Sequence record: PQ826431.1
From: a phage
Length of the DNA stretch: 64,000 bases
Direction: 5' to 3' (one strand)
The notes under the pieces are model-generated. The model saw only the letters and a program-made list of their open reading frames with translations, ran no database searches and was not told where the DNA came from. Below are positions 17,520-46,096 of the stretch, in pieces. Every line of letters begins with the position of its first letter. Positions within the stretch are counted from its first letter, which is position 1. Both the position numbers and the translations under genes were made by a program.

Positions 17520-17548
17520 GAGAATACAGTAATAGTTTAGGAGTGGTT

Positions 17549-18220: not shown

Positions 18221-18228
18221 GAGAGGAT

Positions 18229-19266: not shown

Positions 19267-19270
19267 TTTT

Positions 19271-19882: not shown

Positions 19883-19887
19883 TAGTT

Positions 19888-19915
19888 GCACCCCGTTCTG
19901 CGGGGTGTTATTGTA
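19888..19915 (+). terminator. weak terminator-like hairpin GCACCCCG-ttct-CGGGGTG + T-rich
   Basis: hairpin plus TTATTG. Confidence 0.35.
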
Positions 19916-19933
19916 TATGTAAAGGAGGCGCTA

Positions 19934-20272: not shown

Positions 20273-20462
20273 GAATTATCACCGCTGGTTAGAAAGCTAT
20301 CTTAAGAAATGTGAACTTGGTGTTCCAGGTTATACTTACGACACGGACGAGATCCTTGATGAAATGGAAGTTTGGTTTAAAGAGCCTCGTGAACTATTGG
20401 AAAACATTCTAATGGCTTGGGATGGTACGGCACAAAGCATTGAAGGAGGTAGAAATGAGTAA
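20259..20462 (+). CDS. hypothetical protein (67 aa)
   Basis: ORF track. Confidence 0.5.
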   Translation: MNGVKNYHRWLESYLKKCELGVPGYTYDTDEILDEMEVWFKEPRELLENILMAWDGTAQSIEGGRNE

Positions 20463-20589
20463 GAAATTGTTTAATATTCGTGAGAACCGTGATGGATCGT
20501 TCTCTGTAGTCAATGAGTTTAACGTTTCGGTTGGGACTTTTATTACTAAACGTCAAGCAGAACAAGTAAGAGATACTTTAAACAAGTAA
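20455..20589 (+). CDS. hypothetical protein (44 aa)
   Basis: ATG after RBS GAAGGAGGTAGAA; not in track. Confidence 0.4.
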   Translation: MSKKLFNIRENRDGSFSVVNEFNVSVGTFITKRQAEQVRDTLNK

Positions 20590-20606
20590 ATTTTTAAGGG
20601 GGACTT

Positions 20607-21026
20607 ATGTTAGGTAAGATCAAAGCCTTTTTCAAACGTATTATCGAAGGAAGTCCAACAGAAGGTGCATTAGGAAGATCCCTAACAGGAGAACCACTTG
20701 CCATAATTTCTATCAGTCGGCATGGTGGATATTCCATTCGACAAACACCTTTAGGTATAAAAGGTAGTATGCTTTCTTGGACAATATCTCAAGTTGGTGA
20801 TAACAGGCTTGCAGCTATAGCGTTACTTCGTGGGGAGTATGACTACTGTTTATCAGCATCTTCTAAAAAGCACCTCATAGAGCACATTAGAGACAGAGTA
20901 GAAAGAGAAGGCGGATACTTCTTCGAAACTAAGAGAAACGAACAAGGAACTCTTGACTTCACTAAGGTTTACTGGGACAATCATACTCGTCAAACTGTTG
21001 AACAACTTCTGGAGGAAAGATGTTAA
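20607..21026 (+). CDS. hypothetical protein (139 aa)
   Basis: ORF track; RBS AAGGGGGACTT. Confidence 0.6.
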   Translation: MLGKIKAFFKRIIEGSPTEGALGRSLTGEPLAIISISRHGGYSIRQTPLGIKGSMLSWTISQVGDNRLAAIALLRGEYDYCLSASSKKHLIEHIRDRVEREGGYFFETKRNEQGTLDFTKVYWDNHTRQTVEQLLEERC

Positions 21027-21229
21027 AAGCTTTTGCTGTATACTCTACTGTAGGATTCTTTTATTGGATTATAGTTGTTGTTGGATGTTGGTTGGGTTCT
21101 TCTGTTGTGATGGGAGAATGGTTAACATACAATGTATTTGAATGGGATGTAGTTTGTAGATCATTACTTGTTATATGGACTGCTATTGTTTGTTGGATAA
21201 CTGTTAGTCTAACATTAGATCTATATTGA
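21020..21229 (+). CDS. small membrane protein (69 aa)
   Basis: ORF track; two hydrophobic helices. Confidence 0.5.
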   Translation: MLKAFAVYSTVGFFYWIIVVVGCWLGSSVVMGEWLTYNVFEWDVVCRSLLVIWTAIVCWITVSLTLDLY

Positions 21230-21522
21230 TTAATAGATGGTAGATAGATGATCATAGTTTATCTACCTTCACTTACGTTTCATACCTCACTATCGTGAGT
21301 AACATGAAACATTATTATATAGAAATCTACTACTCGCTATCGCTCGTAAACATATGTTTAGGGTACCATATTTTTTTGAAAAAGTCAATGCTGATTCACC
21401 TATCAATTATCTGTTTAAGATAAGTCTTACCTATCAATCTAAGTCTTAACTAGTATTGCACCTATAGTAAGACTATTCCTATAGTTATTAACCCTCTTCT
21501 TCTGTAGAATGTAATTAGATCC
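21230..21522. repeat. intergenic region with short repeated motifs (CCTATCAAT, AAGTCTTA, CCTATAGT) and inverted repeat GGTAGATA...TATCTACC
   Basis: no ORF; repeated words visible by eye. Confidence 0.4.
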
Positions 21523-21551
21523 TTGACAAACTCACAAAACTTGTGTTACAT
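21523..21551 (+). promoter_or_regulatory. promoter (TTGACA-17-TTACAT)
   Basis: -35 consensus upstream of 21590 ORF. Confidence 0.45.
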
Positions 21552-21589
21552 TGTGTCTCACAGGTGAATAATACCGAACAGGAGGAAGA

Positions 21590-21805
21590 ATGAGTTCCAA
21601 TTTTCTATACAAAGCAAAAGATTCACGAGATGGAGAGAACCATTGGTGGTTGATCACAGAAGATGGTGTTATCATCCTACCGTGGGACGGAGAGACGAAA
21701 GTTCAAATATTAGAGAAAGTAAAAGGTGTTAGTTTTAATGTTAGTCATGACATAACAACTTTCAAAGCTTTTGCTATGAATCCTAATCTTGTTGCTGAAT
21801 GGTAA
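21590..21805 (+). CDS. hypothetical protein (71 aa)
   Basis: ORF track; RBS AACAGGAGGAAGA. Confidence 0.55.
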   Translation: MSSNFLYKAKDSRDGENHWWLITEDGVIILPWDGETKVQILEKVKGVSFNVSHDITTFKAFAMNPNLVAEW

Positions 21806-21818
21806 TCCAGGAGAAAAT

Positions 21819-22037
21819 ATGACTAAAATGTATGCAGCCGTTGATAAGCTGGATGGGTCTGATTCTGTTTTTATTTTGAATAAAATGGGTGTCTTAGTTT
21901 ATGCCCGAACTTCTCAAAACATAGAACACCAAGTGGAAGCAGCACAAATTTTAGAGCAAATAACCCCTCCATACCTATACTCAAATGTTGAGCGTTTTAA
22001 CGATGCACTTGGTTTGACGTTAATAGCAGAATGGTAA
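21819..22037 (+). CDS. hypothetical protein (72 aa)
   Basis: track ORF trimmed to ATG after RBS CCAGGAGAAAAT; C-terminus ...IAEW resembles preceding gene ...VAEW. Confidence 0.55.
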   Translation: MTKMYAAVDKLDGSDSVFILNKMGVLVYARTSQNIEHQVEAAQILEQITPPYLYSNVERFNDALGLTLIAEW

Positions 22038-22039
22038 TA

Positions 22040-22237
22040 ATGGCGAAAATGTTGGAAATTGATAATGTTGTAACAATCACTACGTCCATACCTTGTCATC
22101 CTATGCCTTGCCCTTATTGTGGTGGTGCAGGATATGTTATGGCGGATGTAGGTCAAATTTACGAGTGTAACCCGTGCAAAACCACAGGCTATATCGAAAT
22201 AGAATCAGAGGAGAAACACTATGAGCCAAAACGCTAA
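22040..22237 (+). CDS. small zinc-ribbon protein (65 aa)
   Basis: CPYCGG and CNPCKTTG Cys pairs; start uncertain. Confidence 0.5.
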   Translation: MAKMLEIDNVVTITTSIPCHPMPCPYCGGAGYVMADVGQIYECNPCKTTGYIEIESEEKHYEPKR

Positions 22238-22670
22238 AGAAAAAGAAGTAATCACGGTAATCCGTCAGATGGAAGGTGCAGAAAACAATGCTTTTGTTAC
22301 TAAGATTCTTCTTAATATCTTTGAAGATATTATTTTAAACAATCCTGGTCATAAAGATTATCAGTATGATGTTATGATGGGTGCTTTGCTTGAGATTAAC
22401 AAAAACACTTTTGCTGAATATGAGCAACACATGCTTTTACCAGAGGAAGATCAGGATTATTTGTTATCTGGTGCTTTAAGTGCACAAGAAAATTTCTACC
22501 ACGTTCTTAATATGGCTTATGCAGATGAACTTGCTGTTTCCCTTGAAGAGCGTATTCAAATGGTTCGTGATGTGATGAATGAACAAATCCAAGAAGTTGA
22601 AGATTTGGTGGCAGAACCTTTAGCAGAAATTCGTGCAGCTATTGAAAAACAAAAAGGAACTCAATCATGA
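22221..22670 (+). CDS. hypothetical protein (149 aa)
   Basis: ORF track; RBS CAGAGGAGAAAC. Confidence 0.6.
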   Translation: MSQNAKEKEVITVIRQMEGAENNAFVTKILLNIFEDIILNNPGHKDYQYDVMMGALLEINKNTFAEYEQHMLLPEEDQDYLLSGALSAQENFYHVLNMAYADELAVSLEERIQMVRDVMNEQIQEVEDLVAEPLAEIRAAIEKQKGTQS

Positions 22671-22834
22671 TGCAAGTAGGTGATGTGGTTTGCCTTAAAG
22701 GTGCAAACAAACAAATGACAGTAATAGAAAGTTATGGTGAATCTTGTAAAGTAACTTGGTTCGATGAAAACGGGGAATTGCAACACGCCATATTCGATCA
22801 AAAAGCTTTGAGGAAGGTTGAAGAAAAAGAATGA
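22667..22834 (+). CDS. small beta-barrel protein (55 aa), DUF2158-like pattern
   Basis: GDVVxLKG...MTV...C.V.WFD pattern; not in track. Confidence 0.4.
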   Translation: MMQVGDVVCLKGANKQMTVIESYGESCKVTWFDENGELQHAIFDQKALRKVEEKE

Positions 22835-23094
22835 GCCATCCGTCAATATTTTTCTGTTTTGTAGATCTTGAAAACGAGTCTTTAATCGTTGATAGTGAGG
22901 GTTACTTCACTTATTGGGAATCCGAGCACGAAACTATAAGTGTAGTGAAAGAAATTATGCAAACCAATCCAAACCTACCAGCGCATAAGTACGGTATTGC
23001 AAAAGTGTTTGTTACTAAAACAGAGTACACAAAAGAGCGAAGCACTTTGTACCATAATATTGAAGTGATTCACTATTTCAAAGATGTTATTTAG
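22831..23094 (+). CDS. hypothetical protein (87 aa)
   Basis: ORF track. Confidence 0.55.
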   Translation: MSHPSIFFCFVDLENESLIVDSEGYFTYWESEHETISVVKEIMQTNPNLPAHKYGIAKVFVTKTEYTKERSTLYHNIEVIHYFKDVI

Positions 23095-23102
23095 GAGGTT
23101 AT

Positions 23103-23711
23103 ATGGAAGAGAAGATTTGGGATGGTAAAGATCCTTTAGAAGTTGGACACGTAGTGCGTGTCAAAAAATCTACTACAGGTCCTGGTTTTTCTGGTTTGTA
23201 TCATATACCAGAAGAAGGTCAGCACGTTACAATTTTGGCTCGTGACAAACAAAACGGAGCAACGCCTGTGTGGATTGTTCGTTGGTATGACAAAGATCTT
23301 AACATTTGCTTGTCACCTATTATGGCGCATTTGCTGGAAGCACCTTGCTCTGAAGAAGCTCTAATTTTTGTTTCGGCTTTTCAGAAAGCCACAGGTTTAA
23401 CATTAGATGCAAAAGATGTGCAAAAAGCATTTGACATTATTCAGGAAGACAACGATACTACATCTAACGACGAACTGGTTGAAGTTACAATCTTATCTTC
23501 AGCAGATATCCGAGAGATTGATAATTGTGATTTTCCAATCACATTTAAAATGTCGCAGAAAGACATGCAGTCATCTGGAAGTTGTTTTGGTATACCTCGT
23601 TGGTTTTTTGATTCTATCAAAAATTCTACTACAGAGGGATCAGACTATGATCAAGATGACGTGCTTTGGTTCTTAAAAAACCGAGAGATTGTTCTCTCAC
23701 CACTTAAATAA
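23103..23711 (+). CDS. hypothetical protein (202 aa)
   Basis: ORF track; RBS TTAGGAGGTTAT. Confidence 0.6.
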   Translation: MEEKIWDGKDPLEVGHVVRVKKSTTGPGFSGLYHIPEEGQHVTILARDKQNGATPVWIVRWYDKDLNICLSPIMAHLLEAPCSEEALIFVSAFQKATGLTLDAKDVQKAFDIIQEDNDTTSNDELVEVTILSSADIREIDNCDFPITFKMSQKDMQSSGSCFGIPRWFFDSIKNSTTEGSDYDQDDVLWFLKNREIVLSPLK

Positions 23712-23720
23712 GGAGAAATA

Positions 23721-23822
23721 ATGGTTTCATTTATCGTAGGTGTAGTTGTAGGCTATCTTATTAACAAATATCAAGACGTTATCACGGCAAAAGTAAAAGA
23801 CATTTTAGACTCATCTAAATAA
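23721..23822 (+). CDS. small membrane peptide (33 aa)
   Basis: ATG after RBS TAAGGAGAAATA; hydrophobic; not in track. Confidence 0.3.
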   Translation: MVSFIVGVVVGYLINKYQDVITAKVKDILDSSK

Positions 23823-23874
23823 TCTATCAAAGCTGCATCTTCAATAGGTGCAGCCTTTTAAAAGGAGATATGGC

Positions 23875-24048
23875 ATGACTAAACGCACTGATTTTAAATG
23901 TATGCATTGTGGGAAATCTTTTGGGGATCATCAAGCTCGCACATTCAACTGTCCACGTAAAGGTCGCGGAAATTTTAAAGGTTTTAATCCCGCACATGTT
24001 TATTCTCCAGATTACGATAAGCCAGAAGAAGAAAAATTTGTTATTTAA
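23875..24048 (+). CDS. small zinc-binding protein (57 aa)
   Basis: track ORF trimmed to ATG after RBS AAAAGGAGATATGGC; CMHCGK and CPRKG motifs. Confidence 0.45.
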   Translation: MTKRTDFKCMHCGKSFGDHQARTFNCPRKGRGNFKGFNPAHVYSPDYDKPEEEKFVI

Positions 24049-24060
24049 TAAGGAGGTCAT

Positions 24061-24342
24061 ATGGAACTCGTTCAAGAATTGTATAATGCTTTAGGAGCAA
24101 AAGGAAAAGATTGGCCCGAACATGCGCTTATTGCTATAAGAGACTCCGATGGTGAGATTAAGTTTTCAAGCGTAAGTAAAGAGCACATCGTAGAAACAAA
24201 ACTGGGTATTTACATGCGTGGAACTTATTGCTTATTCAACACCAGAATGGTAGAAGCCCCTGTTATCGAGGATGGAACAAAAGATTGCCCCACAATCGTA
24301 ACAAAATCTGAATATGAGAAGTTTTTCTACGCTAAGGCTTGA
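24061..24342 (+). CDS. hypothetical protein (93 aa)
   Basis: ORF track; RBS AATAAGGAGGTCAT. Confidence 0.6.
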   Translation: MELVQELYNALGAKGKDWPEHALIAIRDSDGEIKFSSVSKEHIVETKLGIYMRGTYCLFNTRMVEAPVIEDGTKDCPTIVTKSEYEKFFYAKA

Positions 24343-24387
24343 CACAGAAACAATACTATAGGATAGTGATCCTATCGTAGCAATAGA

Positions 24388-24409
24388 ACCCGCTTCGGCG
24401 GGTTTTTTC
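24388..24409 (+). terminator. intrinsic terminator ACCCGC-ttcg-GCGGGT + T6
   Basis: hairpin plus TTTTTT. Confidence 0.6.
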
Positions 24410-24433
24410 ATATCTGTAGCAATAGGAGGTCGT

Positions 24434-24664
24434 GTGTTAAATAAAATCGAAGAAGGTTGTATGGCATTTTTGGTAGATAACCCGTTTCCCTTTATGGTTA
24501 AGGTCCATGTAGGAGAGTATTTAGGTTATGACGAATGGGATTGTAGTATCAATAGTGAAATGCACCACTACCAACCAACAATACTTAAGACGGATCAAAT
24601 AGCGCGTATTACAGTAGAGGATGAATTGATCATTGAGTTATACGAGAGAGCACTACACAAGTAA
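24434..24664 (+). CDS. hypothetical protein (76 aa)
   Basis: ORF track; GTG start after RBS TAGGAGGTCGT. Confidence 0.5.
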   Translation: MLNKIEEGCMAFLVDNPFPFMVKVHVGEYLGYDEWDCSINSEMHHYQPTILKTDQIARITVEDELIIELYERALHK

Positions 24665-24708
24665 GCTAGAACCCACCTAAATCGAACAGAGACGCTCTAA
24701 AATAGAAA

Positions 24709-24737
24709 AGGCACCCACTTGGGTGCCTTTGTTTTAT
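24709..24737. terminator. bidirectional terminator at convergence of plus and minus gene blocks
   Basis: hairpin GGCACCCA-ctt-GGGTGCC flanked by A-run and T-run. Confidence 0.65.
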
Positions 24738-25006
24738 TCTTCGTTAGATTGCGTCTCAGACGCGTTAAATTCGGTTTCAGTACAACTTGCTAGGTAACTT
24801 ATATTTTGCATCACTACAACTACAGGTGTTTGAAGTTTATTTTCTAGCCCCGCAGCCACTTGAGCCAAGGCATTATCAATATTTGATTTTCTAACGCCTG
24901 TTCCATGTCCTGTTGCCAAGTAAAGATTACCTTCCCCTTTTTGCGTAGCATTGGCAAAGTAGTAAACGTAATGTGCAAGGTAGTAATCACGGATTTCTTC
25001 AGTCAT
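24734..25006 (-). CDS. hypothetical protein (90 aa)
   Basis: ORF track; RBS AGGAGAATAAA. Confidence 0.55.
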   Translation of the reverse strand: MTEEIRDYYLAHYVYYFANATQKGEGNLYLATGHGTGVRKSNIDNALAQVAAGLENKLQTPVVVVMQNISYLASCTETEFNASETQSNEE

Positions 25007-25049
25007 TTTATTCTCCTAATAAGAAAGGGGCCGAAGCCCCTTGAGTGGT

Positions 25050-25865
25050 TTATTTGTTTAAGTGGTCTTCGACCATTTTAATGAAACCTTCATTGCTGAA
25101 GGCTGTTGCAGCTTTTTCTCGGTAAACAAAAACTCCACGATCTTCATAGAGAAGTGTTTCTTCGTAATTAACTCCAGGGTTAACTACAACCATTTTTGTA
25201 CCCATACTAAGTGCAGGAAATAATTCCCAATTAAAATTGATAACTTGGTTTGAACATCCTACTACTACAACCAAATCTTGCATGGTCAAAGTATCGAACA
25301 AGTGAGCCATATCTGCATACAAAGGTGCAGCCTCACCAAAAAATACAACATTAGGCTTCACCCAGTTATAATCATCTATGTTTATACTATTGTAACCAAT
25401 ATCTACCAGTGTTTTGTAATCTCCAGGATGCATACGGTAAACTACTTCAGGAAGATATCCGTGTACGTGAATAACAGAATCTCTGTCTACACCTGCTCGC
25501 TCTAGTAGATCATCAACGTTTGTTGTCAAGTTTACTATTTGGTTAGGATATTCCTTAAACCACTTTGCTATTTGAATATGTGCAGCATTAGGTTGTACAT
25601 CTTTAAGCTCAACACGTCTTTTGTTATAAAATTCGTGTGTTTTGGCATACAAATCCATACCGTTCTCGTCTACACCACCGACCACTGGAAGATCTGGAGA
25701 TGTTCTAACACGATAACCTGCTTGGAAAGCTCCAATATCGCAGACCTCTTCTAAATCATATTCTTCCCATAAAGCACGACCACTATCTGTGTCTGTTCTA
25801 AATGTTCGAATCCCACTGTCTGCACTTAAACCTGCACCGCTTACAAAAATCACTCGTCTTGGCAT
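25050..25865 (-). CDS. Sir2-family (sirtuin-like) NAD-binding protein, 271 aa
   Basis: N-terminal FVSGAGLSADSGIRTFR (sirtuin GAG-S-x-x-SGI-P-x-FR-like motif), IHVHG motif; no Zn-ribbon cysteines seen. Confidence 0.65.
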   Translation of the reverse strand: MPRRVIFVSGAGLSADSGIRTFRTDTDSGRALWEEYDLEEVCDIGAFQAGYRVRTSPDLPVVGGVDENGMDLYAKTHEFYNKRRVELKDVQPNAAHIQIAKWFKEYPNQIVNLTTNVDDLLERAGVDRDSVIHVHGYLPEVVYRMHPGDYKTLVDIGYNSINIDDYNWVKPNVVFFGEAAPLYADMAHLFDTLTMQDLVVVVGCSNQVINFNWELFPALSMGTKMVVVNPGVNYEETLLYEDRGVFVYREKAATAFSNEGFIKMVEDHLNK

Positions 25866-35120: not shown

Positions 35121-35813
35121 TTAAATAGCGGTTCCTTCGAAATCCGCCACATTTACGAGATTAATATTTTCAGATTTAGAAGTCAAGTTGTTTTCTGCAA
35201 CAGATTTTTCTTCAGTATCCGCCTCGTTACCTGCCACGTTACGAGGTTCTTCTTCACCGTAGGGATTACCGAATTTCAAAAGATTGATCAATTCTTCTTT
35301 GGAGAAGTTTTCTAAATCATCATCTGTTAATTCAATAATCTCGTCTTGTTCTTCAATAAATGTTTCACCACCAGAAAAAGCATCTCGCTTTTTAGCTACT
35401 TCCATAGCCTGTTCTGGTGTTGCTCCTGCATCAAGAGCAGCTAAAGCAAAGTCTGACCCGCTTCCTACCGCATAATATTCTTCATCAATCGGATATGCAC
35501 GTGTTGGGTTGTTACCTTCGTGCAGGAAAATACGTCCATCTGGATGAACAACAAGTGCAATAAACTCTTCATCTTCTTTATCTGGATCAGAGTGAATCAT
35601 CAAACCAGGGACAGCATCACGTGCTGCTTCGCACTGTAGATTTTGTTCAAACCATTGAAAGAAAGAAAGCACGGAGGTCAGACGACCAGCACCGCCTACA
35701 AGGTAATCTCCAATTTTTCGGACCTTTTTGAAATTAATAGAATCTACACGTCCACCAAAAGTTACCTTACCGTCACTCAAAATCTTATTTTTGGTCGCAA
35801 TAATTGTCGTCAC
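35121..35813 (-). CDS. HslV-like (proteasome beta-type, N-terminal Thr) peptidase with acidic C-terminal extension, 230 aa
   Basis: MTTIIATKN N-terminus, GGRV, LVGGAGR, AVGSGSDFALAAL resemble HslV/ClpQ. Confidence 0.55.
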   Translation of the reverse strand: MTTIIATKNKILSDGKVTFGGRVDSINFKKVRKIGDYLVGGAGRLTSVLSFFQWFEQNLQCEAARDAVPGLMIHSDPDKEDEEFIALVVHPDGRIFLHEGNNPTRAYPIDEEYYAVGSGSDFALAALDAGATPEQAMEVAKKRDAFSGGETFIEEQDEIIELTDDDLENFSKEELINLLKFGNPYGEEEPRNVAGNEADTEEKSVAENNLTSKSENINLVNVADFEGTAI

Positions 35814-36348: not shown

Positions 36349-37107
36349 TTAAATAAACACTTCAGTAATCAGTTTAGACAAACGTCCACGTTTATTATCG
36401 TCCGTTGTCAGTTCAACATATCCAATAAAATCTACAATTGGCTCACGAACACCCTCTTCATTCTCTGGATATAAAAGTTCCAAAATTTGATGCAGACCAT
36501 TGCTACGTTTTTTAATTGCATATGTCTGGCGAACATCGCCTAATACAATAACATGCGTATTAATACCTGCACGTTCAATAAGAAGTTTAAGTGTTTCTGT
36601 TGACATAAGTTGTGCTTCGTCAATAATGACGATTGTATTATCCAGGGTAGCCCCCAACAAATAGTTAGGAATATTCAATTCGATCTTACCTGATCCAATA
36701 TCGTTTTCCAATTTGTTGGCTGTCATGAATTGCTGGAAAATACGTTTTGTAGATTCATAGTGTGCTGCTAGTTTATCTGTTTTATCCCCAGACAAGAAAC
36801 CAATCTGGTCATCTCCGACTTCAGTAGGGTTCTTGATAAAAAGTAGTTTACGGAAGTCTCCTGAACGAAGCATCTGCAAAGCTTTCCATAAAGCAACAGA
36901 GGTTTTACCAGTCCCTGCCGGAGCATTTACAACAGTCAGATCATTCCAAATCATGCTTTGAACAATCTTATTTTGGTCCCCTTCAGGCATAAATTCATCT
37001 AAACGGTAATCGTCATTACCTACCGCTTTTGCTGCATAACGGCTTTCAATCTTTGCTGAATTAGCCAGTTTCTGCCGTTGTGTTTTAGCTGCGGTTTTAT
37101 TTCCCAT
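36349..37107 (-). CDS. phoH: PhoH-like ATPase
   Basis: Walker A APAGTGKTSVAL, IIDEAQL and GDVRQ motifs; track ORF trimmed to ATG after RBS AAAAGGAGTG. Confidence 0.85.
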   Translation of the reverse strand: MGNKTAAKTQRQKLANSAKIESRYAAKAVGNDDYRLDEFMPEGDQNKIVQSMIWNDLTVVNAPAGTGKTSVALWKALQMLRSGDFRKLLFIKNPTEVGDDQIGFLSGDKTDKLAAHYESTKRIFQQFMTANKLENDIGSGKIELNIPNYLLGATLDNTIVIIDEAQLMSTETLKLLIERAGINTHVIVLGDVRQTYAIKKRSNGLHQILELLYPENEEGVREPIVDFIGYVELTTDDNKRGRLSKLITEVFI

Positions 37108-37126
37108 AGTAGCACTCCTTTTAGAA

Positions 37127-37140
37127 GGGGCCGAAGCCCC
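37127..37140 (-). promoter_or_regulatory. intergenic UUCG-tetraloop hairpin GGGGC-UUCG-GCCCC (copy; also at 25027 and 41413)
   Basis: identical 14-nt hairpin at three minus-strand junctions, each followed by RBS. Confidence 0.5.
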
Positions 37141-37144
37141 TTTA

Positions 37145-37645
37145 TTAGTTGTAAGCATCTAAAGTTCCAGAAGTCAGAACTTTAATTACTCGTTCAGCAC
37201 GGTTTGGCGTCTGGCTATACCATCGGCTTTTACGCATGTTTTTACCTGCTTGAGTATAATATGCATTGCTGATTAAAGTCAAGCTATTTTGAAACCCTTC
37301 AGCACCTTTTAACCCCAACTGGAAAACCATGTTGATTATTCCCAATTTACGAGTATCACTAACCTTATCATAGATTGGTGATAAGATAGTACTGTTTTTT
37401 ATGTCTCTCTTCACTTTTGCAACATCGTCAGCAAAGATTTGACGGGCTTCTTTTTCTGTGATAACTCCATTAGTCTTACGACCAAGAAGATTATCTAAGA
37501 TTTGAATAGCCTTTGCTTTATCTTTTATTTTAGTCAGAAGGTGTCCTATGCCGACTGTCCAATAACCAAGATGGTCTTGATAAACAGTAAGCTTCAGTCC
37601 TTCATCGACTCGTAGCATATCAAACTCATCTACTACTTTAGCCAT
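37145..37645 (-). CDS. T4-type lysozyme (endolysin, GH24), 166 aa
   Basis: near-colinear similarity to T4 lysozyme: EFDMLRVDEGLKL..YQD..GYWTVGIGHLL, catalytic E/D/T positions conserved. Confidence 0.9.
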   Translation of the reverse strand: MAKVVDEFDMLRVDEGLKLTVYQDHLGYWTVGIGHLLTKIKDKAKAIQILDNLLGRKTNGVITEKEARQIFADDVAKVKRDIKNSTILSPIYDKVSDTRKLGIINMVFQLGLKGAEGFQNSLTLISNAYYTQAGKNMRKSRWYSQTPNRAERVIKVLTSGTLDAYN

Positions 37646-37807: not shown

Positions 37808-38068
37808 TTACTCCGCAATTTGAGCCATGAGATCACGCAGTTCGGTAAAACCGCCTACGTATGTTACCTCCCCGTTCACTTCAGACAGAATTTGTGGAAA
37901 TGTGCGTGGAGGAACTCCGGTAAGATCAACAACTGTTTTAGTCATTGATTCTAAATCATAGTCTTGATCAAGACTTAAATATTCAAACTGTTTATTGCGC
38001 ATGGTTAATAGTTGTTTTGACATTTCGCAAAATTGACAGTTAGGTTTACCAAAAATTACAAATTCCAT
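37808..38068 (-). CDS. glutaredoxin-like protein (NrdC/NrdH-type), 86 aa
   Basis: thioredoxin-fold CxxC (KPNCQFC) and TFPQI...GG motif. Confidence 0.75.
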   Translation of the reverse strand: MEFVIFGKPNCQFCEMSKQLLTMRNKQFEYLSLDQDYDLESMTKTVVDLTGVPPRTFPQILSEVNGEVTYVGGFTELRDLMAQIAE

Positions 38069-38910
38069 TACCTCTCCTTATTAAGTAATACTGCTAAAGA
38101 CTGTTCAATACCTTTATTTAAATCTGATTTTGTAAGATAGTGACTGGTTACTAGTTGTGACTTCACCGGACGTGCTGCTGGAGCATTATAGGTTGAAGCT
38201 GATACCGCCGATATCTTAACAGGTTCTGGCATCTGTGTCAAGATCTTTTCCGCAAACTCCGCCCAAGAAATAAAATGGCTTCCTGCAAAATGGTAAGTCT
38301 TAACAGACCTTGACCAACCTGTTTTTAATACTTCAAAAATAGCTTCTGCTAAATCTGGAGCATATGTTGGACAAGAGAACTGATCAGCAACAACAATAAA
38401 ATCACGTTGTCCATCATTATAGCGAGACAACATGGTTTTTAGAAAGTTATTTCCAAATTCGCTATATACCGAGGCTGTTCGAATAATATATGCATTTGGG
38501 TTAACTCCTCGCACCATTTTTTCACCAAGTTCTTTCGTATACCCATAATTGTTTATTGGGTTAGGTGTAGTATCTTCAAAAATAGGATGAGAATAATTAA
38601 AAATATAATCTGTAGAAATATGCACAAAATCAATTTTAAGTTTGCTGCACACTGCCGCAATATTTGCAGGTCCATACGCATTAACAGCCAAAGCAGTAGC
38701 AAAATCATGTTCTGCTTTATCTACAGCCGTATAAGCGGCGCAATTAATAACACCATCTACATAATCTTCAACAATAGCGTTTCGCACAGCTTCAAAATTT
38801 GTAATATCTACACGTTCTTTAGGATAAATTAAAGATACATTTGAAGGAACCACTTTACGTAAAGCTTGTCCCAGTTGTCCATTACCGCCCAATACCAGAT
38901 ATGTTAGCAT
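38068..38910 (-). CDS. rmlD: dTDP-4-dehydrorhamnose reductase
   Basis: GGNGQLG, INCAAYTAVDKAE, HISTDYIF, YGYTKELGEK (YxxxK), RTASVY..GNNFLKTML closely match RmlD. Confidence 0.85.
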   Translation of the reverse strand: MLTYLVLGGNGQLGQALRKVVPSNVSLIYPKERVDITNFEAVRNAIVEDYVDGVINCAAYTAVDKAEHDFATALAVNAYGPANIAAVCSKLKIDFVHISTDYIFNYSHPIFEDTTPNPINNYGYTKELGEKMVRGVNPNAYIIRTASVYSEFGNNFLKTMLSRYNDGQRDFIVVADQFSCPTYAPDLAEAIFEVLKTGWSRSVKTYHFAGSHFISWAEFAEKILTQMPEPVKISAVSASTYNAPAARPVKSQLVTSHYLTKSDLNKGIEQSLAVLLNKER

Positions 38911-39470
38911 ACACCCTCGCTACGTAACTGTTGAAAAGATTTAGCCATTGCATCTTTTGTTGATAGGATAGGTTTAAAACCTTCGTCAAAAATCATATCG
39001 AAGCCCCAATCGATCCCTATGTCAGGATCATCCCAACGTAAACTTTGTTCACTAGAAGGGTCGTATGGAGTTGTGCATTTGTATTCAAAGATCGCATCCA
39101 TACTCAAAACTATAAAACCATGTGCCAAACCAGGAGGAAGCCAAAACTGCGTATGGTGTCGTGCACGAAGAACAACACCGTCCCAAGCACCGTAAGTTGG
39201 ACTGTCTTTACGTAAGTCTACAGCGAAATCCAATACTTCCCCACTTACACAACGAACAAGCTTACCTTGCGGATTATTTGTTTGAAAGTGCATTCCTCGC
39301 AAAACACCGAAGTTTGATTTAGACATATTATCTTGAACGAAAGTTTGTTTACCAATAATATCTTCGTATTTTTGTTCATTGTATGTTTCTAAAAAGAAAC
39401 CACGATCATCTTTATAAACGTCTGGTTTGATAATTACCGCACCTTCAATTTTTGTTTTTTCTACTTTCAT
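38904..39470 (-). CDS. rmlC: dTDP-4-dehydrorhamnose 3,5-epimerase
   Basis: DDRGFFLETY, FVQDN-SKS-FGVLRGMHFQ match RmlC cupin signature. Confidence 0.85.
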   Translation of the reverse strand: MKVEKTKIEGAVIIKPDVYKDDRGFFLETYNEQKYEDIIGKQTFVQDNMSKSNFGVLRGMHFQTNNPQGKLVRCVSGEVLDFAVDLRKDSPTYGAWDGVVLRARHHTQFWLPPGLAHGFIVLSMDAIFEYKCTTPYDPSSEQSLRWDDPDIGIDWGFDMIFDEGFKPILSTKDAMAKSFQQLRSEGVC

Positions 39471-39479
39471 TTTCTCTCC

Positions 39480-39806
39480 TTACCAGACATGTTGAGAAAT
39501 AATAGTTTCCGTTTTAATGTTATATTTTTCAAGTAGCTCTGCATAGGCTTCTTTTGCATTCTCATTCAATTGCTCAAGATCTACAGCTATGCTTCCTTCT
39601 CCACCTTCTAAATCAAGGCCATATATGCAATAAGACTCATCTGCATCGTAGAAAGGAGAGATGCGGCTTAAGTCAAGACCTTCTTGTAAGAACCAATTAA
39701 AATCTCCATCAAATTCTTCTTCAATTCTAGGATCTTCTCCTACAGCCTCTTCCCACTTATTAAAAGGTGCACCCTGTAACATACGCCATTCGATATCAAT
39801 ACCCAT
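39480..39806 (-). CDS. hypothetical acidic protein (108 aa)
   Basis: ORF track. Confidence 0.55.
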   Translation of the reverse strand: MGIDIEWRMLQGAPFNKWEEAVGEDPRIEEEFDGDFNWFLQEGLDLSRISPFYDADESYCIYGLDLEGGEGSIAVDLEQLNENAKEAYAELLEKYNIKTETIISQHVW

Positions 39807-40096: not shown

Positions 40097-40305
40097 TATT
40101 CCTCCTTAATTATTTCAAACTTGGCAACACCATTTACAATAATATGACCACAAGACATAACTCCTAGCCAAGGATCGCCGTTTTTCTTCAGGCGTTTACC
40201 GAATACATCACAAAAACCATTCTTCATTTCGGAGGCTTCATAAGAAGCCCCTTTGTCAAAAACGTCTTTGAATGTGTCGATTATACCAACACATCTCAAA
40301 ATCAT
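40096..40305 (-). CDS. hypothetical protein (69 aa)
   Basis: ORF track. Confidence 0.5.
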   Translation of the reverse strand: MILRCVGIIDTFKDVFDKGASYEASEMKNGFCDVFGKRLKKNGDPWLGVMSCGHIIVNGVAKFEIIKEE

Positions 40306-41390
40306 TAGAAGTCAAGCTCCTCATCATCAGAGAGATCTTTGTTAGCTGAATTCAATTTGTAGTTAGTTAACTGAATCTCTTGGGCTGCTGACTGAATCAA
40401 ATCAGGATTCAACCATTTTTCCATCCAAGCTAAAGGACTATGTTTAGGTGCTTTAAACTTAGCTTTCATTTTCAATCGACGATAAATAGGAGCAGCATTG
40501 AAATAAACCCACTGTTTAGACAATTCGGCGTTAAGACCTACAATAAAACGACCTTCACTAAACAGGTAGTCACACCACTGTTCCTCTTGTTCAACAACAG
40601 TGTCGAGGATCAAAGTCAACTCTTCAATATTGTCTTCGTAAATTTTACGCCAAATTGGGTCATGCATCAATGCATCAATTACAGCATAATCCATCTTAAC
40701 ATGCAAGATTTCATCTAGCATAATTTTCTGGATCAGTTTACAAGCCCCAACAAACAGTTGTTGTTCTGCCATAGCAAAAGTAGCAGAGAAGGAAGATATA
40801 AACTGAATACCTTCTAATCCAATCAGGGCTACCATCCCTTTAAGAATCAGCAGTCGAAGTTCATCGTTAGCTTCAATCAATCCTAGAGCATACTTATGAC
40901 CAGCTTCTTCCAACTGACCCATGATATCAGCAATGATACCCATACGATTGAAAATTTTATCATTAATCATAATCTGATTGATGACTTCAATTGGATCTGG
41001 AGTACATTGACGGATTATTTCAGAATACGTTAACGCATGGAGAACTTCCATTTCACTCTGCTTCATCATCATAGCACAGGCTTCATTGTTACTCAAGAAT
41101 GGAGAGAACAAAGTGATGATTGATTTTGCAAGAGAATCATTTTCCCATTGGAACGATAAGTTTTTAATCATAACATCATAGTTGTTTTTAGAACAAGCTA
41201 CGAAATCTTTACGTGTCTGATCCAGATTAACTTCGTTTTCATCCCAATCTTGTGCTTTTTGAAGTTTGTAGAGTTTGTGCATTTCTGGATAAGTTACGTT
41301 AACAGAATCAAAGATCCCTAATTGCTCCCCCAAAAATACTGGATATTTTCCTGTTTTGTAAACTTCATTGTGTAAATTAATTGCTGCCAT
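40305..41390 (-). CDS. nrdB: ribonucleotide reductase class Ia beta subunit
   Basis: di-iron ExxH motifs (MEVLHA, DEILHV), size and adjacency to nrdA. Confidence 0.85.
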   Translation of the reverse strand: MAAINLHNEVYKTGKYPVFLGEQLGIFDSVNVTYPEMHKLYKLQKAQDWDENEVNLDQTRKDFVACSKNNYDVMIKNLSFQWENDSLAKSIITLFSPFLSNNEACAMMMKQSEMEVLHALTYSEIIRQCTPDPIEVINQIMINDKIFNRMGIIADIMGQLEEAGHKYALGLIEANDELRLLILKGMVALIGLEGIQFISSFSATFAMAEQQLFVGACKLIQKIMLDEILHVKMDYAVIDALMHDPIWRKIYEDNIEELTLILDTVVEQEEQWCDYLFSEGRFIVGLNAELSKQWVYFNAAPIYRRLKMKAKFKAPKHSPLAWMEKWLNPDLIQSAAQEIQLTNYKLNSANKDLSDDEELDF

Positions 41391-41433: not shown

Positions 41434-42087
41434 TTAGCCTCGAAATACTGTTTTTGTTTCCGCCAGGTGCCAATAGAAATCCGCCTTGTTTACAAGAGTG
41501 TTGTACACCTCTGGATAAAAATGTTCTTCCTCTTTGTAACGATCCGCTGTTTCCCTGATTGACTTAGCTTTATCTTTTAGCCAAGCGAAGTGTGCCTCTT
41601 CCTCTGTAGCGAAGTAACCTAAATGCTTTCCTTTGTGTCCAGATGATTTAGAAGAAATCTTACCATCGGATTTTCTTACAGTTACCCCTAAAAGGGATTT
41701 TCTTTCCGTCCTTTTTGAGTAACTTAACAGAGTATTCACATATGCTGGAACAAACCTACAATACGCTGGACAATAGACCGTATTACCTTCAAGTACAAGG
41801 TCTTTGTCCAGAACAAAGTTTGCTACAAAGTTTTCTTGATACCACATGTCGAAGTTTGAAAACATAAACCACTCGTCACAAACCGTCACACCTGTATACC
41901 CAGGTCTTGCTTGTTCCATTTTATAGGCTCTTTCGAACATGTTTTTCCAAGCTTTGTAAGACGGGTCTGGCTTCCCGTCTACAAATAATCGTCTTTCTAC
42001 ATCAACTACTAAGGGGATTTCTCCCCTTTCGGTAGTAACGGTCACTGCACGTTTACCTTTGAGCATTTGACCTCCTACATGCTGCAA
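41434..42087 (-). CDS. homing endonuclease-like protein (degenerate HNH-type N-domain + AP2-like DNA-binding domain) between nrdA and nrdB
   Basis: YKAW..M..RAY...GVTVCDEW..F.NFDMW pattern shared with 52446 ORF; C-terminal GYFATEEEAHFAW AP2-like motif. Confidence 0.5.
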   Translation of the reverse strand: MQHVGGQMLKGKRAVTVTTERGEIPLVVDVERRLFVDGKPDPSYKAWKNMFERAYKMEQARPGYTGVTVCDEWFMFSNFDMWYQENFVANFVLDKDLVLEGNTVYCPAYCRFVPAYVNTLLSYSKRTERKSLLGVTVRKSDGKISSKSSGHKGKHLGYFATEEEAHFAWLKDKAKSIRETADRYKEEEHFYPEVYNTLVNKADFYWHLAETKTVFRG

Positions 42088-44321
42088 CCCTCACATCCAG
42101 ACTCTTTCAGGTTATCTTCTTGTGCTAAAGAATCTGCTGATTTTGTTCTACTATTAAGGTAATACAATGACTTACCACCCAGTCTAGCAAAGTTCAAAAT
42201 AAATTTCATCTCTTCTTTAACTGATAAACGTCCCCCTACCAATTTAGAATAATCTAACCAAGAATCACAAGAAATTCCTTGGTCCGTAAACTTGGTAAAG
42301 ATACCATACATTTCTGCAAGATCTTTAGCCGGAGTATCCCAGGCAGATTGGTAGAACATTTTCAGTTTTTCATAGTCTGGAACAATAAATAATACACTGC
42401 CTTTCTGACTTTGTTTATACATAATGGTATCACGAACAGGATACAGAGAGTTAGTAGTATTGCTTACCAAACTGCTGGACTCATTAGGTGCAATAGCAGC
42501 CAAGACACTGTTACGGATACCACCTTGTTCAATGATTTCAGCACGTAAGCCTTCCCAGTCCATTTTAAGATCAAAATTACCGATACTATCTACTGTTTTA
42601 GCATAAGTGTCAATTGGTAGCCAACCTTGAGGCCATTTGGTCTTATCGATCCACTCCGCATTACCTTTTTCCTTAGCCAGACGCAGAGAGGCTTTTGCCA
42701 ACCAAAAGTAATGACGTTCTGCAAGTTCATGCATTAATTTTTTAGCATAAGCATCTGAATAATTTACAAAATTACTTGCCAAGTAATGCGCTAAGTTTGT
42801 AATGCCTACACCAATAGATCTACGTGCTTTAGCAGTTATTTCGTTATGTTTAAATGGATAATCCATTGTTTCAATAACGTTGTCAATTGTCAATACAGTG
42901 TAGTATGCAACATCTTCATATTCTTCAGGTAATACACGACCAGCAACAATAGAAGATAAGAAACATAAAGCCAATTCTTGATCTTCTGTATTCTCACCAG
43001 TAAAGAGATCCGGCATACTGTGGAAAGCTTTAGTTGGTAAGAAGATCTCTTGACACAGGTTTGATTGATACACCGTATCCAGGAAAGGTGTATGGTTGTT
43101 AACGTTGTCAGCAAAGAACATGTAAATACGTCCTGTTTCTGCACGTTGAACAATAATCTCTGTCAGAAGATCACGAGCCTTAACAAATTTTTTCTTAATG
43201 CGACGACGGCTTACTTTGTCATAAACTGCATCAAACTCTTCTTCACTTTTATACAAAGCTTCATAAAGTTCAGGAGCATCATCACAACTAACTAACATCC
43301 AATCTTCGTTTTTTGCTGCTCGACGCAAGAACGAACGGTTAACAACAATAGAATAATCCAGTTTGTCTACTCGTTTATCTATAGGTGTTGTTGGATTCTT
43401 CAGTCGAATCAGATCGTCGAAGTCTGGTTCAAGTATGGTAAAGGTAACTGTAGCACTACCTCCACGGCTTGCTTGCTTCGAAGCTCCAACACTATCTTCC
43501 ATCCATTTCAGATACGGAAGAAGACCACCATGAATAATACGATTATTCTTAACACCTTGACCTGTGGCACGAGTTTGAAGATTAACACCAATACCTGCGT
43601 TATTCAACGTATACTCATGAGCTAAGTAATTAGCAATGGCTAAAGATTCTGCCGTATCGTCTGCACGGAATAAACAACAAGACGCACTTCCTTTGATTGG
43701 AGTTCGTAGAGTTGTCAGATACGGCGATGGCAGATTAATCTTAAGATCGCTAACATAAGTATAAAGTTTTTTAATATCTTCTATACGGCGTTCTTTTGGT
43801 TGGATCTCCATAACCTTCATTGCGATACCAATGAAAAGAAACTGTGGAGACTCATGCACCACATCGTTTACTGCATCTCGAATAAGATATTTATCTACCA
43901 TCTGACGTAAAACAGAATAACCATAAGTTAGATTTTTATTATGCTTTACAATCTTACCGATTTCTTTGATCTCTTCATCAGTATAATCCATTTTAGCCCA
44001 ATGTCCACGTTCTACCATATCATGATAAAAGGTATTCAGTGAAGGGATACTGTGGTATCCCCCATGAGCCTGTTTGTAAATCATACCCAGAAGAAGTCTT
44101 CCTGCCATATCACTGTAAGCTTGTGTTTTCTTGTCAATACACGCTGCAATCATTGCTTTATGCAGATCACGTGTAGACACACCGTCATAACACCGCTTCA
44201 CAGCTTCTAATTCAATTTCAGACCAGTTTAGTTTACCTGCTGCAAATTCAGACCACTTGCGAAGTTTTTCTGGATTAAACTCCTCTGTCTTACCGTTAGA
44301 TTTAGTTACAAAACGAATCAA
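42075..44321 (-). CDS. nrdA: ribonucleotide reductase class Ia alpha subunit
   Basis: 748 aa; ATP-cone N-terminus, catalytic-core motifs (NLCQEI, PNESSS), C-terminal CEGCSM tail analogous to T4/E. coli NrdA. Confidence 0.9.
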   Translation of the reverse strand: MIRFVTKSNGKTEEFNPEKLRKWSEFAAGKLNWSEIELEAVKRCYDGVSTRDLHKAMIAACIDKKTQAYSDMAGRLLLGMIYKQAHGGYHSIPSLNTFYHDMVERGHWAKMDYTDEEIKEIGKIVKHNKNLTYGYSVLRQMVDKYLIRDAVNDVVHESPQFLFIGIAMKVMEIQPKERRIEDIKKLYTYVSDLKINLPSPYLTTLRTPIKGSASCCLFRADDTAESLAIANYLAHEYTLNNAGIGVNLQTRATGQGVKNNRIIHGGLLPYLKWMEDSVGASKQASRGGSATVTFTILEPDFDDLIRLKNPTTPIDKRVDKLDYSIVVNRSFLRRAAKNEDWMLVSCDDAPELYEALYKSEEEFDAVYDKVSRRRIKKKFVKARDLLTEIIVQRAETGRIYMFFADNVNNHTPFLDTVYQSNLCQEIFLPTKAFHSMPDLFTGENTEDQELALCFLSSIVAGRVLPEEYEDVAYYTVLTIDNVIETMDYPFKHNEITAKARRSIGVGITNLAHYLASNFVNYSDAYAKKLMHELAERHYFWLAKASLRLAKEKGNAEWIDKTKWPQGWLPIDTYAKTVDSIGNFDLKMDWEGLRAEIIEQGGIRNSVLAAIAPNESSSLVSNTTNSLYPVRDTIMYKQSQKGSVLFIVPDYEKLKMFYQSAWDTPAKDLAEMYGIFTKFTDQGISCDSWLDYSKLVGGRLSVKEEMKFILNFARLGGKSLYYLNSRTKSADSLAQEDNLKESGCEGCSM

Positions 44322-45097: not shown

Positions 45098-46096
45098 TCA
45101 CCATTTAGTATGATTTGTTAAAAGTTGACGATGTTGAATCCAGCCTTTGAAATTGCCAGACCAAAACTTACCATTACGATCTACATGGGTAATGCCTGGC
45201 TCCCAAGAGTTAAAATCCCAAGGAGCATTGATAAACAAATCTTCAAAACAGTTCTCTCCATATTGTTCGTATGTTTCTTGCATTGGAGTGGCTTGATGTT
45301 CAAACGGAGAAGCATGAACCTTGCGCCCAGTCAGCAAACGACCATAGATATCTAAAGCTTTATCTTTAGTTGCATTCAAACGACGATAGCTAACCTGTGC
45401 ACAACACGAAGCTGAAATAGCTTTGGCTTCTTCCAAAGTAAGCACAACAACTTCTCCAGATTCATCTTGAACGTAGTATCCACCAAAAACAAAATGATCG
45501 TCACCTTCTGTGCCAATAGTATCATAGAAATGGTCTACATAAGGTGTGTGCCATTGCCCTGGTTTCAGCACTTCTGGTGTAGATCCTTCATACTCTTTGT
45601 GCATCTCTTTAGCCAAAGCTTCGATAGTAGGATCGGCTTCTTTGTCATCACGCAGCCACCAGAAATTTTCATATTCTGTTGCTGTCAGAACTGTTTTAAT
45701 TCGTTGGAAAGGTTCCAGAAGACGGTTTGCAACTTGTTTGTGGTACCCTGCCAAAGAGAATTCTTCTGCAAAACGTGCTGCACTAAGCGCGGCAAGATCC
45801 CACCACTCTTGAGCAGTATAACCTGCATCAATAAGAGCGTCATGATCAACACCTTTATCCTGCATACCAGGTTGGTTAGCCCCAAAACGATAAGGACGAG
45901 CAGGTTGATTTCGCACCATTTCAATCAGTGTTTTAACAGGTATAGCACGGCTAGAAGCAGCATTACGACTGAACAGGCGGTGAGTCATCAATTCTGAATG
46001 AATAATACGTGGATATTCTAGTTCAAAAGTTACAATCTCTTTTCCGTCTTCAGTGATGGAATGCGCAATAATACTAGCCGAAATCTGTTTTGTCAT
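45098..46096 (-). CDS. thyX: flavin-dependent thymidylate synthase-like protein
   Basis: ThyX signature variant THR-x3-S-x4-SSR (LMTHRLFSRNAASSRAIP); 332 aa. Confidence 0.65.
   Translation of the reverse strand: MTKQISASIIAHSITEDGKEIVTFELEYPRIIHSELMTHRLFSRNAASSRAIPVKTLIEMVRNQPARPYRFGANQPGMQDKGVDHDALIDAGYTAQEWWDLAALSAARFAEEFSLAGYHKQVANRLLEPFQRIKTVLTATEYENFWWLRDDKEADPTIEALAKEMHKEYEGSTPEVLKPGQWHTPYVDHFYDTIGTEGDDHFVFGGYYVQDESGEVVVLTLEEAKAISASCCAQVSYRRLNATKDKALDIYGRLLTGRKVHASPFEHQATPMQETYEQYGENCFEDLFINAPWDFNSWEPGITHVDRNGKFWSGNFKGWIQHRQLLTNHTKW

Follow-up and report, generated by a model that had tools for sequence, protein, structure and literature searches.

The 64,000-nucleotide stretch of phage DNA analysed here (PQ826431.1; the window) encodes the last two enzymes of dTDP-L-rhamnose synthesis (dTDP, deoxythymidine diphosphate), RmlC and RmlD, in a pair of genes that is the remainder of an ancestral four-gene rmlBACD cassette. 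They lie on the minus strand as two overlapping open reading frames (ORFs), the rmlD start and rmlC stop sharing 7 nt, and the coordinates given for them by the initial annotation, 38068-39470, proved exact:

38904..39470, minus strand: rmlC, dTDP-4-dehydrorhamnose 3,5-epimerase, 188 amino acids (profiles, PDB matches, catalytic residues)
38068..38910, minus strand: rmlD, dTDP-4-dehydrorhamnose reductase, 280 amino acids (profiles, PDB matches, catalytic residues)

By sequence, both are RmlC/RmlD-family enzymes that look to be in working order. RmlC matched PF00908 (E=7.8e-67) and scored 225.3 bits on the TIGR01221 equivalog model (cut-off 155.75), with residues 2-181 of 188 covered. RmlD matched PF04321 (E=1.5e-73) and passed the TIGR01214 equivalog narrowly, at 239.5 bits against 224.05; it fell below the enterobacterial-type model NF007440 (118.6 bits against 308). 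Each protein aligned over nearly its full length with crystallised enzymes of its kind, RmlC with, for example, 1dzr (7.6e-56) and RmlD with 3sc6 (2.5e-44) and 1kbz (9e-29), and RmlC matched mono-epimerase relatives of the NovW and EvaD type far more weakly (2c0z, 3.3e-29, against ~7e-56 for true RmlC). In Salmonella enterica, RmlC works through a His63-Asp170 catalytic dyad, with Tyr133 as the acid and Lys73 stabilising the enolate, and RmlD combines a GxxGxxG dinucleotide-binding motif with the short-chain dehydrogenase/reductase (SDR) triad Thr104, Tyr128 and Lys132. Window RmlC residues H61 (GMHFQ), K70 (QGKLVR), Y130 (FEYKC) and D173 (STKD) are identical in E. coli RfbC and phi92 RmlC, and the catalytic positions also match solved RmlC structures in alignment. 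RmlD keeps G8xxG11xxG14, T100 (ISTDY) and Y122/K126 (YGYTK) relative to E. coli RfbD and phi92 RmlD, and these motif positions align with 3sc6 and 1vl0 as well. Together, the equivalog scores and retained catalytic residues rule out generic SDR and cupin proteins, one of the outcomes that the initial annotation had named as refuting it.

A self-sufficient four-enzyme dTDP-L-rhamnose pathway is not encoded; the phage has steps 3 and 4 only. Searching the 64-kb window by tblastn, we found no match to phAPEC8 RmlA, and phAPEC8 RmlB recovered only weak SDR cross-similarity to rmlD itself, in agreement with the initial annotation, which had also advised looking in the rest of the genome. The complete 148-kb genome of the closest, 99%-identical relative likewise gave no tblastn match to either gene, which rules out a location elsewhere in the window or, as far as this relative represents it, the genome.

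Comparative analysis places the origin of this half-cassette in a deletion. At 99.2% identity, the region matches Escherichia phage iGC_PHA_EC001, and dozens of phAPEC8-like phages (Phapecoctavirus, Stephanstirmvirinae) match it at 98-99%; the window thus comes from an E. coli phage of the phAPEC8-like Phapecoctavirus type. The type phage, phAPEC8, has rmlB-rmlA-rmlC-rmlD in the same slot, in transcription order, and its RmlA (TIGR01207, 464.5 bits) and RmlB (TIGR01181, 431.2 bits) are both comfortably over their equivalog cut-offs. Phage phi92 of the sister genus (gp067-gp064) and the divergent phiWec186 also carry rmlB-A-C-D, between glutaredoxin and the small ORFs that follow nrdB. Because all three phages share order and slot, the four-gene cassette is ancestral to the subfamily and the window represents a derived deletion; the reverse polarity, with rmlCD alone as the ancestral state and rmlBA as a recent insertion in phAPEC8, is ruled out by phi92 and phiWec186. 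Two features mark the site:

39471..39479, minus strand: deletion junction, which includes the rmlC ribosome-binding site (GGAGAGAAA) and separates the rmlC ATG from the stop codon of the small ORF before it
39480..39806, minus strand: conserved small ORF of 108 amino acids (phrog_15453), marking the left deletion boundary

The phrog_15453 ORF precedes rmlC in the window and rmlB in full-cassette phages. In phAPEC8, this ORF ends TGG-TAA and is followed by GGAGA-ACTG-ATG, the last triplet opening rmlB, while the end of rmlA, GC-GGAGA-GAAA-ATG, overlaps the start of rmlC. The window reads TGG-TAA-GGAGA-GAAA-ATG directly into rmlC. Relative to phAPEC8, rmlB-rmlA have been lost as exactly 1,876 bp between two 5-bp Shine-Dalgarno-like GGAGA repeats, and rmlC is left with an intact, well-spaced ribosome-binding site. 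Ten rmlBA-less relatives have the identical junction, to the base. There are at least two further kinds of lesion: MirsaeidiM_Esher1 lost rmlBA at a different junction, in a divergent flank, and DIJ07P2 (OZ035771.1) represents a third, independent route, an internal loss of ~800 bp whose junction ends overlap by ~9 bp; little of rmlA is left, and rmlB, short of its final ~77 nt, becomes a truncated ORF of 306 amino acids. As an aside, WPEC1 (PV659873.1) shows the common junction and first small ORF upstream of rmlC, and then unrelated small ORFs where nrdB and nrdA would be expected; the WPEC records are 155-161 kb long, WPEC2 matched the query at 16 places, and the oddity may be a rearrangement, a duplication or an assembly problem.

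How common is the half-cassette? Among the 65 Phapecoctavirus records with rmlCD at ≥95% identity, a count that includes GenBank/RefSeq duplicates, 41 had full rmlBA, 1 had part of it and 23 had none. About a third of sequenced Phapecoctavirus records are therefore of the rmlBA-less type, and the initial annotation's description of the arrangement as unusual gives way to that of a derived and fairly frequent state, one instance of which, ESCO37, was reported to lack rmlA and rmlB by Nicolas et al. in 2023 (PMC10269720). By comparison, rmlC and rmlD were intact in 20 of 20 genomes examined, 12 of them without intact rmlBA, with no frameshift, stop or truncation, and among database matches we found no record with rmlBA and without rmlCD. 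Nei-Gojobori ratios of nonsynonymous to synonymous substitution rates (dN/dS) were 0.03-0.04 for rmlC and 0.14-0.15 for rmlD in rmlBA-less genomes, essentially the same as in rmlBA-plus genomes (0.017 and 0.11), which indicates strong purifying selection on rmlCD, rmlBA-less genomes included. When rmlC, rmlD and the two flanks were each used for neighbour-joining trees, rmlBA-plus and rmlBA-minus genomes were interleaved; the deletion thus behaves as a recombination-shuffled polymorphism, and rmlBA loss as a clade marker is ruled out. Consistent with a recombining polymorphism, the laboratory recombinant REC (ESCO5 x ESCO37) regained rmlA and rmlB (PMC10269720).

A phage with only the last two steps must draw on host dTDP-4-keto-6-deoxyglucose, a point on which our reasoning and the initial annotation coincide, and the supply appears to be nearly universal. 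RffH and RffG produce this compound as an intermediate of enterobacterial common antigen (ECA) synthesis. Their adjacent genes, which in E. coli K-12 lie in the ECA cluster as rffG-rffH-rffC-wecE, occur in 5,309 of 5,426 complete E. coli genomes (98%). Phage RmlA shares 65% identity with RffH, and phage RmlB 50% with RffG. A homologue of K-12 rfbC was detectable in 2,348 of the same 5,426 genomes (~43%), a lower bound given that the search was by blastn, which operates at 65-70% identity here. Phage rmlA and rmlB would be dispensable because the RmlC substrate is available in essentially every E. coli, whereas rmlC and rmlD would be retained because many hosts lack them, being redundant only in hosts with rhamnose-containing glycans. 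The primary receptor adds to this logic: Vequintavirinae and their relatives, phi92-like phages among them, need ECA (wecB) for infection (Maffei et al., PMC8594841), so any cell to which such a phage can adsorb should also make the substrate of RmlC.

The window contains no glycosyltransferase (GT) genes. Extending the search to the rest of the genome, as the initial annotation had proposed, uncovered a four-gene cassette in the closest relative and related clusters in more distant phages:

OR437326, 87378-90522 (outside the window): four adjacent glycosyltransferase genes, GT4-GT3-GT2-GT1, in the complete, rmlCD-only, 99%-identical relative
Stretches L026, 2103-5319, and L028, 7797-10921: cassette copies with an SDR gene, in a distant 135-kb phage and an Enterobacter huaxiensis prophage

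In the rmlCD-only relative, the cassette adjoins the primase/helicase and DNA polymerase genes. All four proteins fall into PHROG glycosyltransferase families; their Pfam matches are weak or none, with no family covering GT4 (the GT4-like proteins are 181-187 amino acids long) and none above threshold for GT3, and searches of GT1, GT3 and GT4 against PDB sequences returned nothing useful. GT1 and GT2 are paralogues (41% identity). GT3, whose DDD motif is invariant, is predicted to adopt a GT-A fold (predicted local distance difference test score, pLDDT, 88), and its nearest solved folds in Foldseek are STIV A197, vaccinia H3, TarP and LH3; GT2 (pLDDT 94) is modelled as a GT-B/GT4-like fold, nearest to PglA, BshA, MshA, SdgB, TarM and Gtf3. 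RmlC and GT3 homologues occur in the same phage clades with near-equal record counts (106 versus 107 in Escherichia phages, 65 each in Phapecoctavirus).

Better evidence than this co-occurrence comes from outside the subfamily, where the 135-kb phage and the E. huaxiensis prophage share the order GT4-like, SDR, GT3, GT2. The inserted SDR has dTDP-glucose 4,6-dehydratase as its best match, at 171-180 bits against a cut-off of 365, and is 30% identical to phage RmlB. Because a dehydratase-like SDR is embedded in two unrelated phage contexts, the cassette seems to travel with 6-deoxyhexose chemistry. A Pseudomonas silvicola prophage carries a GT3-GT2 pair beside terminase, and in both prophages the cassette sits directly upstream of terminase, portal and capsid genes, between those and the lysis genes. 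Two closer identities considered for GT3 appear unlikely. As an orthologue of the virion glycosyltransferases of mycobacteriophage Che8, it showed only remote GT-A similarity to gp108 (23% identity, pairwise E=4e-4), and hhalign against gp108-110 was not significant. As a TET-associated DNA glycosyltransferase, it matched PF20691 over 37 residues below threshold (E=1e-3, 19.5 bits, cut-off 27.5), and the fold search gave generic GT-A neighbours.

The genes around rmlCD overlap or follow one another closely, all on the minus strand, and the neighbours are those described by the initial annotation, with glutaredoxin and lysozyme on one side and the nrd genes on the other:

35121-35813, minus strand: HslV/proteasome-like peptidase (weak PF00227 match), downstream in the same gene string
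36349-37158, minus strand: PhoH-like ATPase, downstream in the same gene string
37145..37645, minus-strand string: T4-type lysozyme, downstream, with a small ORF between it and glutaredoxin
37808..38068, minus strand: glutaredoxin, 86 amino acids (PF00462, 1.8e-09), its start overlapping the rmlD stop by 1 nt
40305..41390, minus strand: nrdB (PF00268 match), upstream
41434..42087, minus strand: HNH-type ORF of 217 amino acids between nrdB and nrdA, annotated as an HNH endonuclease in a 99%-identical record
42075..44321, minus strand: nrdA, upstream, from the annotation of the 99%-identical record
45098-46096, minus strand: ThyX-like 'thymidylate synthase' of 332 amino acids (31 bits on the ThyX model, cut-off 87.9)

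Glutaredoxin follows rmlD in the same way in phAPEC8, phi92 and phiWec186, and four small ORFs separate nrdB from rmlC on the upstream side. The 332-amino-acid ThyX-like protein, unusually long and divergent, scored strongly on a PHROG thymidylate synthase family, and a profile search gave no match to the ThyA/hydroxymethylase family. Between positions 36000 and 46500 there are no minus-strand terminator-like sites, and the 39 promoter-like sites hardly exceed the 30 ± 4.9 expected from shuffled sequence; with such counts, we rejected internal promoters or terminators that would split rmlCD from the nrd genes. Transcription of rmlCD together with the nucleotide-metabolism genes, which the initial annotation had stated as fact, is plausible from this packed, terminator-free string.

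Several observations on this region stand apart from the rml genes. The HslV-like peptidase and PhoH-like ATPase are auxiliary genes of the rmlCD string. The 217-amino-acid HNH-type ORF had no Pfam match, and the nrdA-nrdB spacer in which it lies varies among relatives, with no annotated ORF in ESCO37, nepoznato, anhysbys and ECO340P1 and a different ORF of 339-408 bp in phAPEC8, SF1-1 and ZCKP1; it looks like a mobile homing-endonuclease site. On a larger scale, the window has plus-strand small ORFs below 24 kb, a long block of early/middle genes on the minus strand between 25 and 60 kb, and then a plus-strand tRNA/late region, and the sign of the GC skew flips at ~24-25 kb and ~60 kb, coinciding with the switches of coding strand. 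The window also runs across the arbitrary ends of a linearised relative record, positions 11608-25096 corresponding to 134955-148445 of that record and position 26142 onward to 1164 onward.

Taken together, we think it probable that the window's RmlC and RmlD are functional, that they are the kept half of rmlBACD fed by a host intermediate, and that the dTDP-rhamnose they make probably goes to a glycan built by the phage glycosyltransferase cassette on an acceptor other than DNA. In the lineage of the window, a precise 1,876-bp deletion between GGAGA repeats removed rmlBA and left rmlC, its ribosome-binding site intact, in an early/middle string shared with the nucleotide-metabolism genes. In the proposed sequence of events during infection, RmlC and RmlD would convert host dTDP-4-keto-6-deoxy-D-glucose to dTDP-L-rhamnose, the intermediate coming from RffH and RffG of the ECA pathway and, where present, from host RmlA and RmlB. 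Less certainly, this dTDP-rhamnose may feed GT4-GT3-GT2-GT1, encoded ~75 kb away and outside the window, and the cassette may build a rhamnose-containing glycan on a non-DNA acceptor, for which a virion protein would be the best guess and a host envelope component the alternative.

A virion protein seems the better candidate because of the position of the cassette in the prophages and the remote similarity to mycobacteriophage glycosyltransferases. Carried further, this suggests that Stephanstirmvirinae place a deoxyhexose glycan on their own virions, using phage-made dTDP-L-rhamnose and a conserved, mobile GT4-like/GT3/GT2 cassette, a proposal that we offer tentatively and with some doubt; within it, and just as tentatively, GT1 might have arisen in Stephanstirmvirinae by duplication of GT2. 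If true, this would be the first described virion glycosylation system for phages of Gram-negative bacteria, and for their glycosylation the natural variants with and without rmlBA would rely to different extents on ECA or O-antigen precursors supplied by the host.

Several points weigh against the reading we prefer. RmlD clears its TIGR01214 cut-off by a small margin, and RmlD-like reductases of the Tll type can yield 6-deoxy-L-talose in place of L-rhamnose, a difference that sequence alone does not discriminate. Part of the dN/dS signal may come from variation that recombination brought in from genomes with rmlBA, and the rfbC prevalence, as a lower bound, may understate how many hosts make RmlC for themselves. 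The connection between the rml genes and the glycosyltransferases is guilt by association: their co-occurrence is confounded by phylogeny, both being clade markers of one subfamily, and the SDR embedded in the distant cassettes scores below the dehydratase threshold. In Stephanstirmvirinae, the cassette lies beside replication and not structural genes, which fits a DNA-directed role equally well, and the GT3 match to Che8 gp108 is weak. In the literature we found no functional study, enzymology or glycan analysis of these phage rml genes.

The foremost rival is that phage glycosyltransferases use dTDP-rhamnose to glycosylate phage DNA, T-even style, as a protection from nucleases. This was the first use suggested by the initial annotation and was already in print as speculation, Olsen et al. 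(2020) having described the pathway as 'peculiar' and suggested that hydroxymethylated nucleotides are rhamnosylated (PMC7552041), an idea repeated with the same caveat by Vitt et al. in 2024 (PMC10844046). Its appeal lies in gene position, with the rml genes among those for nucleotide metabolism and the GT cassette adjoining primase/helicase and DNA polymerase both in the subfamily and in the distant 135-kb phage, and in weak local similarities of GT3 to PF20691 and to the PHROG of the beta-glucosyl-hydroxymethylcytosine alpha-glucosyltransferase (7.6e-6, ~40 residues). These similarities, however, are confined to the nucleotide-binding part that GT-A folds have in common, and no phage DNA glucosyltransferase was among the Foldseek matches listed for GT3 and GT2. 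Four glycosyltransferases suggest the assembly of an oligosaccharide, and the homologous prophage cassette lies between lysis and terminase/head genes. DNA glycosylation would also call for a modified base, and the 332-amino-acid thymidylate-synthase-like protein was rejected as its hydroxymethylase, matching ThyX only, and weakly, with no ThyA-family match; no hydroxymethylase or TET/JBP dioxygenase was present among the 279 annotated features of the closest genome, only some of whose many hypothetical proteins were profiled. Finally, Maffei et al. (2021) described relatives that encode the whole pathway as 'exceptionally susceptible' to restriction-modification systems despite their 'putative dTDP glycosylation machinery' (PMC8594841). 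On balance, DNA glycosylation by these phages is disfavoured and DNA rhamnosylation unlikely.

Manipulation of nucleotide pools is a second rival, and one we judge quite unlikely. Here RmlC and RmlD would drain dTDP-4-keto-6-deoxyglucose from host ECA or O-antigen synthesis, or raise dTDP-L-rhamnose and so spare dTTP, the sugar nucleotide itself being a dead end. dTDP-L-rhamnose is a feedback inhibitor of RmlA-type thymidylyltransferases, rmlCD share their location, and probably their transcript, with nrdAB, glutaredoxin and the ThyX-like gene, and an rmlCD-only phage necessarily competes with WecE for one intermediate in a pathway that makes the receptor of these phages (PMC8594841). Yet the products of phage rmlA and rmlB, genes present in the ancestral cassette and in most records, consume dTTP and boost dTDP-sugar flux, the opposite of sparing; surface ECA would persist through one lytic cycle; and the proposal leaves unexplained the four-GT cassette and, in other phages, its embedded dehydratase-like gene.

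That rmlC and rmlD are functionless passengers, decaying since the loss of rmlBA, is very improbable. In its favour, deletions have struck rmlBA at least three times, and many isolation hosts (K-12, with rfbBDAC, and Shigella flexneri) make dTDP-rhamnose themselves, so that the phage genes could be redundant there. Against it, the two genes are undamaged in all 20 genomes, their dN/dS is indistinguishable with and without rmlBA, the deletion kept an optimal rmlC ribosome-binding site, and the converse genotype, rmlBA without rmlCD, was not found.

Part of this picture was already known, namely the genes themselves, annotated in >60 GenBank records, the DNA-glycosylation speculation and the existence of an rmlAB-less variant. 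Three points are new here: rmlBA has been lost cleanly and repeatedly while rmlCD is strictly kept, host ECA synthesis would account for that loss, and a mobile cassette of glycosyltransferase genes is recognised as having a link to the synthesis of deoxyhexoses. Our survey also corrects the record in one respect: Olsen et al. stated that the rml pathway is complete in all phapecoctaviruses (PMC7552041), and two of their own phages, nepoznato and anhysbys, lack rmlBA. Some records that are 93-99% identical over these genes to E. coli Stephanstirmvirinae carry other host labels (Campylobacter phages B15, A150 and A110a, Acinetobacter phage vB_AbaM_ABPW7, Pseudomonas phage PsgM04F, Serratia phage KKP_3264 and Klebsiella phage ZCKP1), which points either to a very broad host range or to unreliable labels.

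The rml genes themselves are ordinary; the phages that carry them are of practical interest. Phapecoctavirus and Justusliebigvirus are among the coliphages with the broadest host ranges and are entering therapeutic and biocontrol cocktails, AV125 and AV126 having infected 84 and 65, respectively, of 198 strains producing extended-spectrum or AmpC beta-lactamases (PMC10844046), and their dTDP-rhamnose genes have been noted as a puzzle in three papers. Were the sugar found on virions, immune recognition and pharmacokinetics could be affected, as reported for glycosylated mycobacteriophages; on DNA or the host surface, it would be relevant to superinfection or to escape from defences. Nearly isogenic phages with and without rmlBA exist in nature and, together with a defined four-GT cassette, offer an experimental handle, with the prediction that rmlCD-only phages depend on host rffG and rffH, or on host rmlA and rmlB where present. 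Together, the new findings make the question of what these phages glycosylate directly testable.

Among known systems, T-even DNA glucosylation resembles the present case in that a large lytic myovirus encodes glycosyltransferases and uses sugar nucleotides while it replicates. It differs in its donor, UDP-glucose and not the dTDP-deoxyhexose expected here, and in its hydroxymethylase, none having been found in the window or in the annotation of the closest genome; the T4 AGT and BGT folds were not among the matches listed for the GT2 and GT3 models, and the relatives are restriction-sensitive (PMC8594841).

The gp108-110 genes of mycobacteriophage Che8 offer a second likeness, a phage-encoded multi-glycosyltransferase cluster, and tblastn with GT3 recovered ~330 glycosyltransferase genes of Mycobacterium phages at 25-27% identity. 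To our knowledge, mycobacteriophages do not encode rml genes. Capsid glycosylation is documented for mycobacteriophages (Freeman et al. 2023, as described in PMC11256854 and PMC12363180), whereas the Stephanstirmvirinae cassette is known here from its genes.

Bacterial RmlABCD systems (E. coli rfbBDAC; S. enterica 1dzr and 1kbz) share with the window the protein families, the catalytic residues and the expected chemistry of steps 3 and 4. Window RmlC and RmlD are 50% and 31% identical to the E. coli K-12 enzymes; their genes belong to a phage nucleotide-metabolism string, whereas the bacterial counterparts belong to an O-antigen or capsule cluster, and the full phage cassette is ordered B-A-C-D against B-D-A-C in E. 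coli.

The closest comparisons are with other phages of the genus. In phAPEC8, gp100-gp103 (rmlD, rmlC, rmlA and rmlB) occupy the same slot and strand with the same gene overlaps, and the RmlC and RmlD proteins are 99.5% and 97.9% identical to those of the window; phAPEC8 has rmlB and rmlA upstream of rmlC, and it is exactly those 1,876 bp that the window is without. The rmlBA-less Phapecoctavirus genomes, among them iGC_PHA_EC001, ESCO37, nepoznato, Mt1B1_P17, anhysbys, ZCKP1, SF1-1 and ECO340P1, have the gene content and junction of the window, are 98-99.6% identical to it across rmlCD and show no material difference from it.

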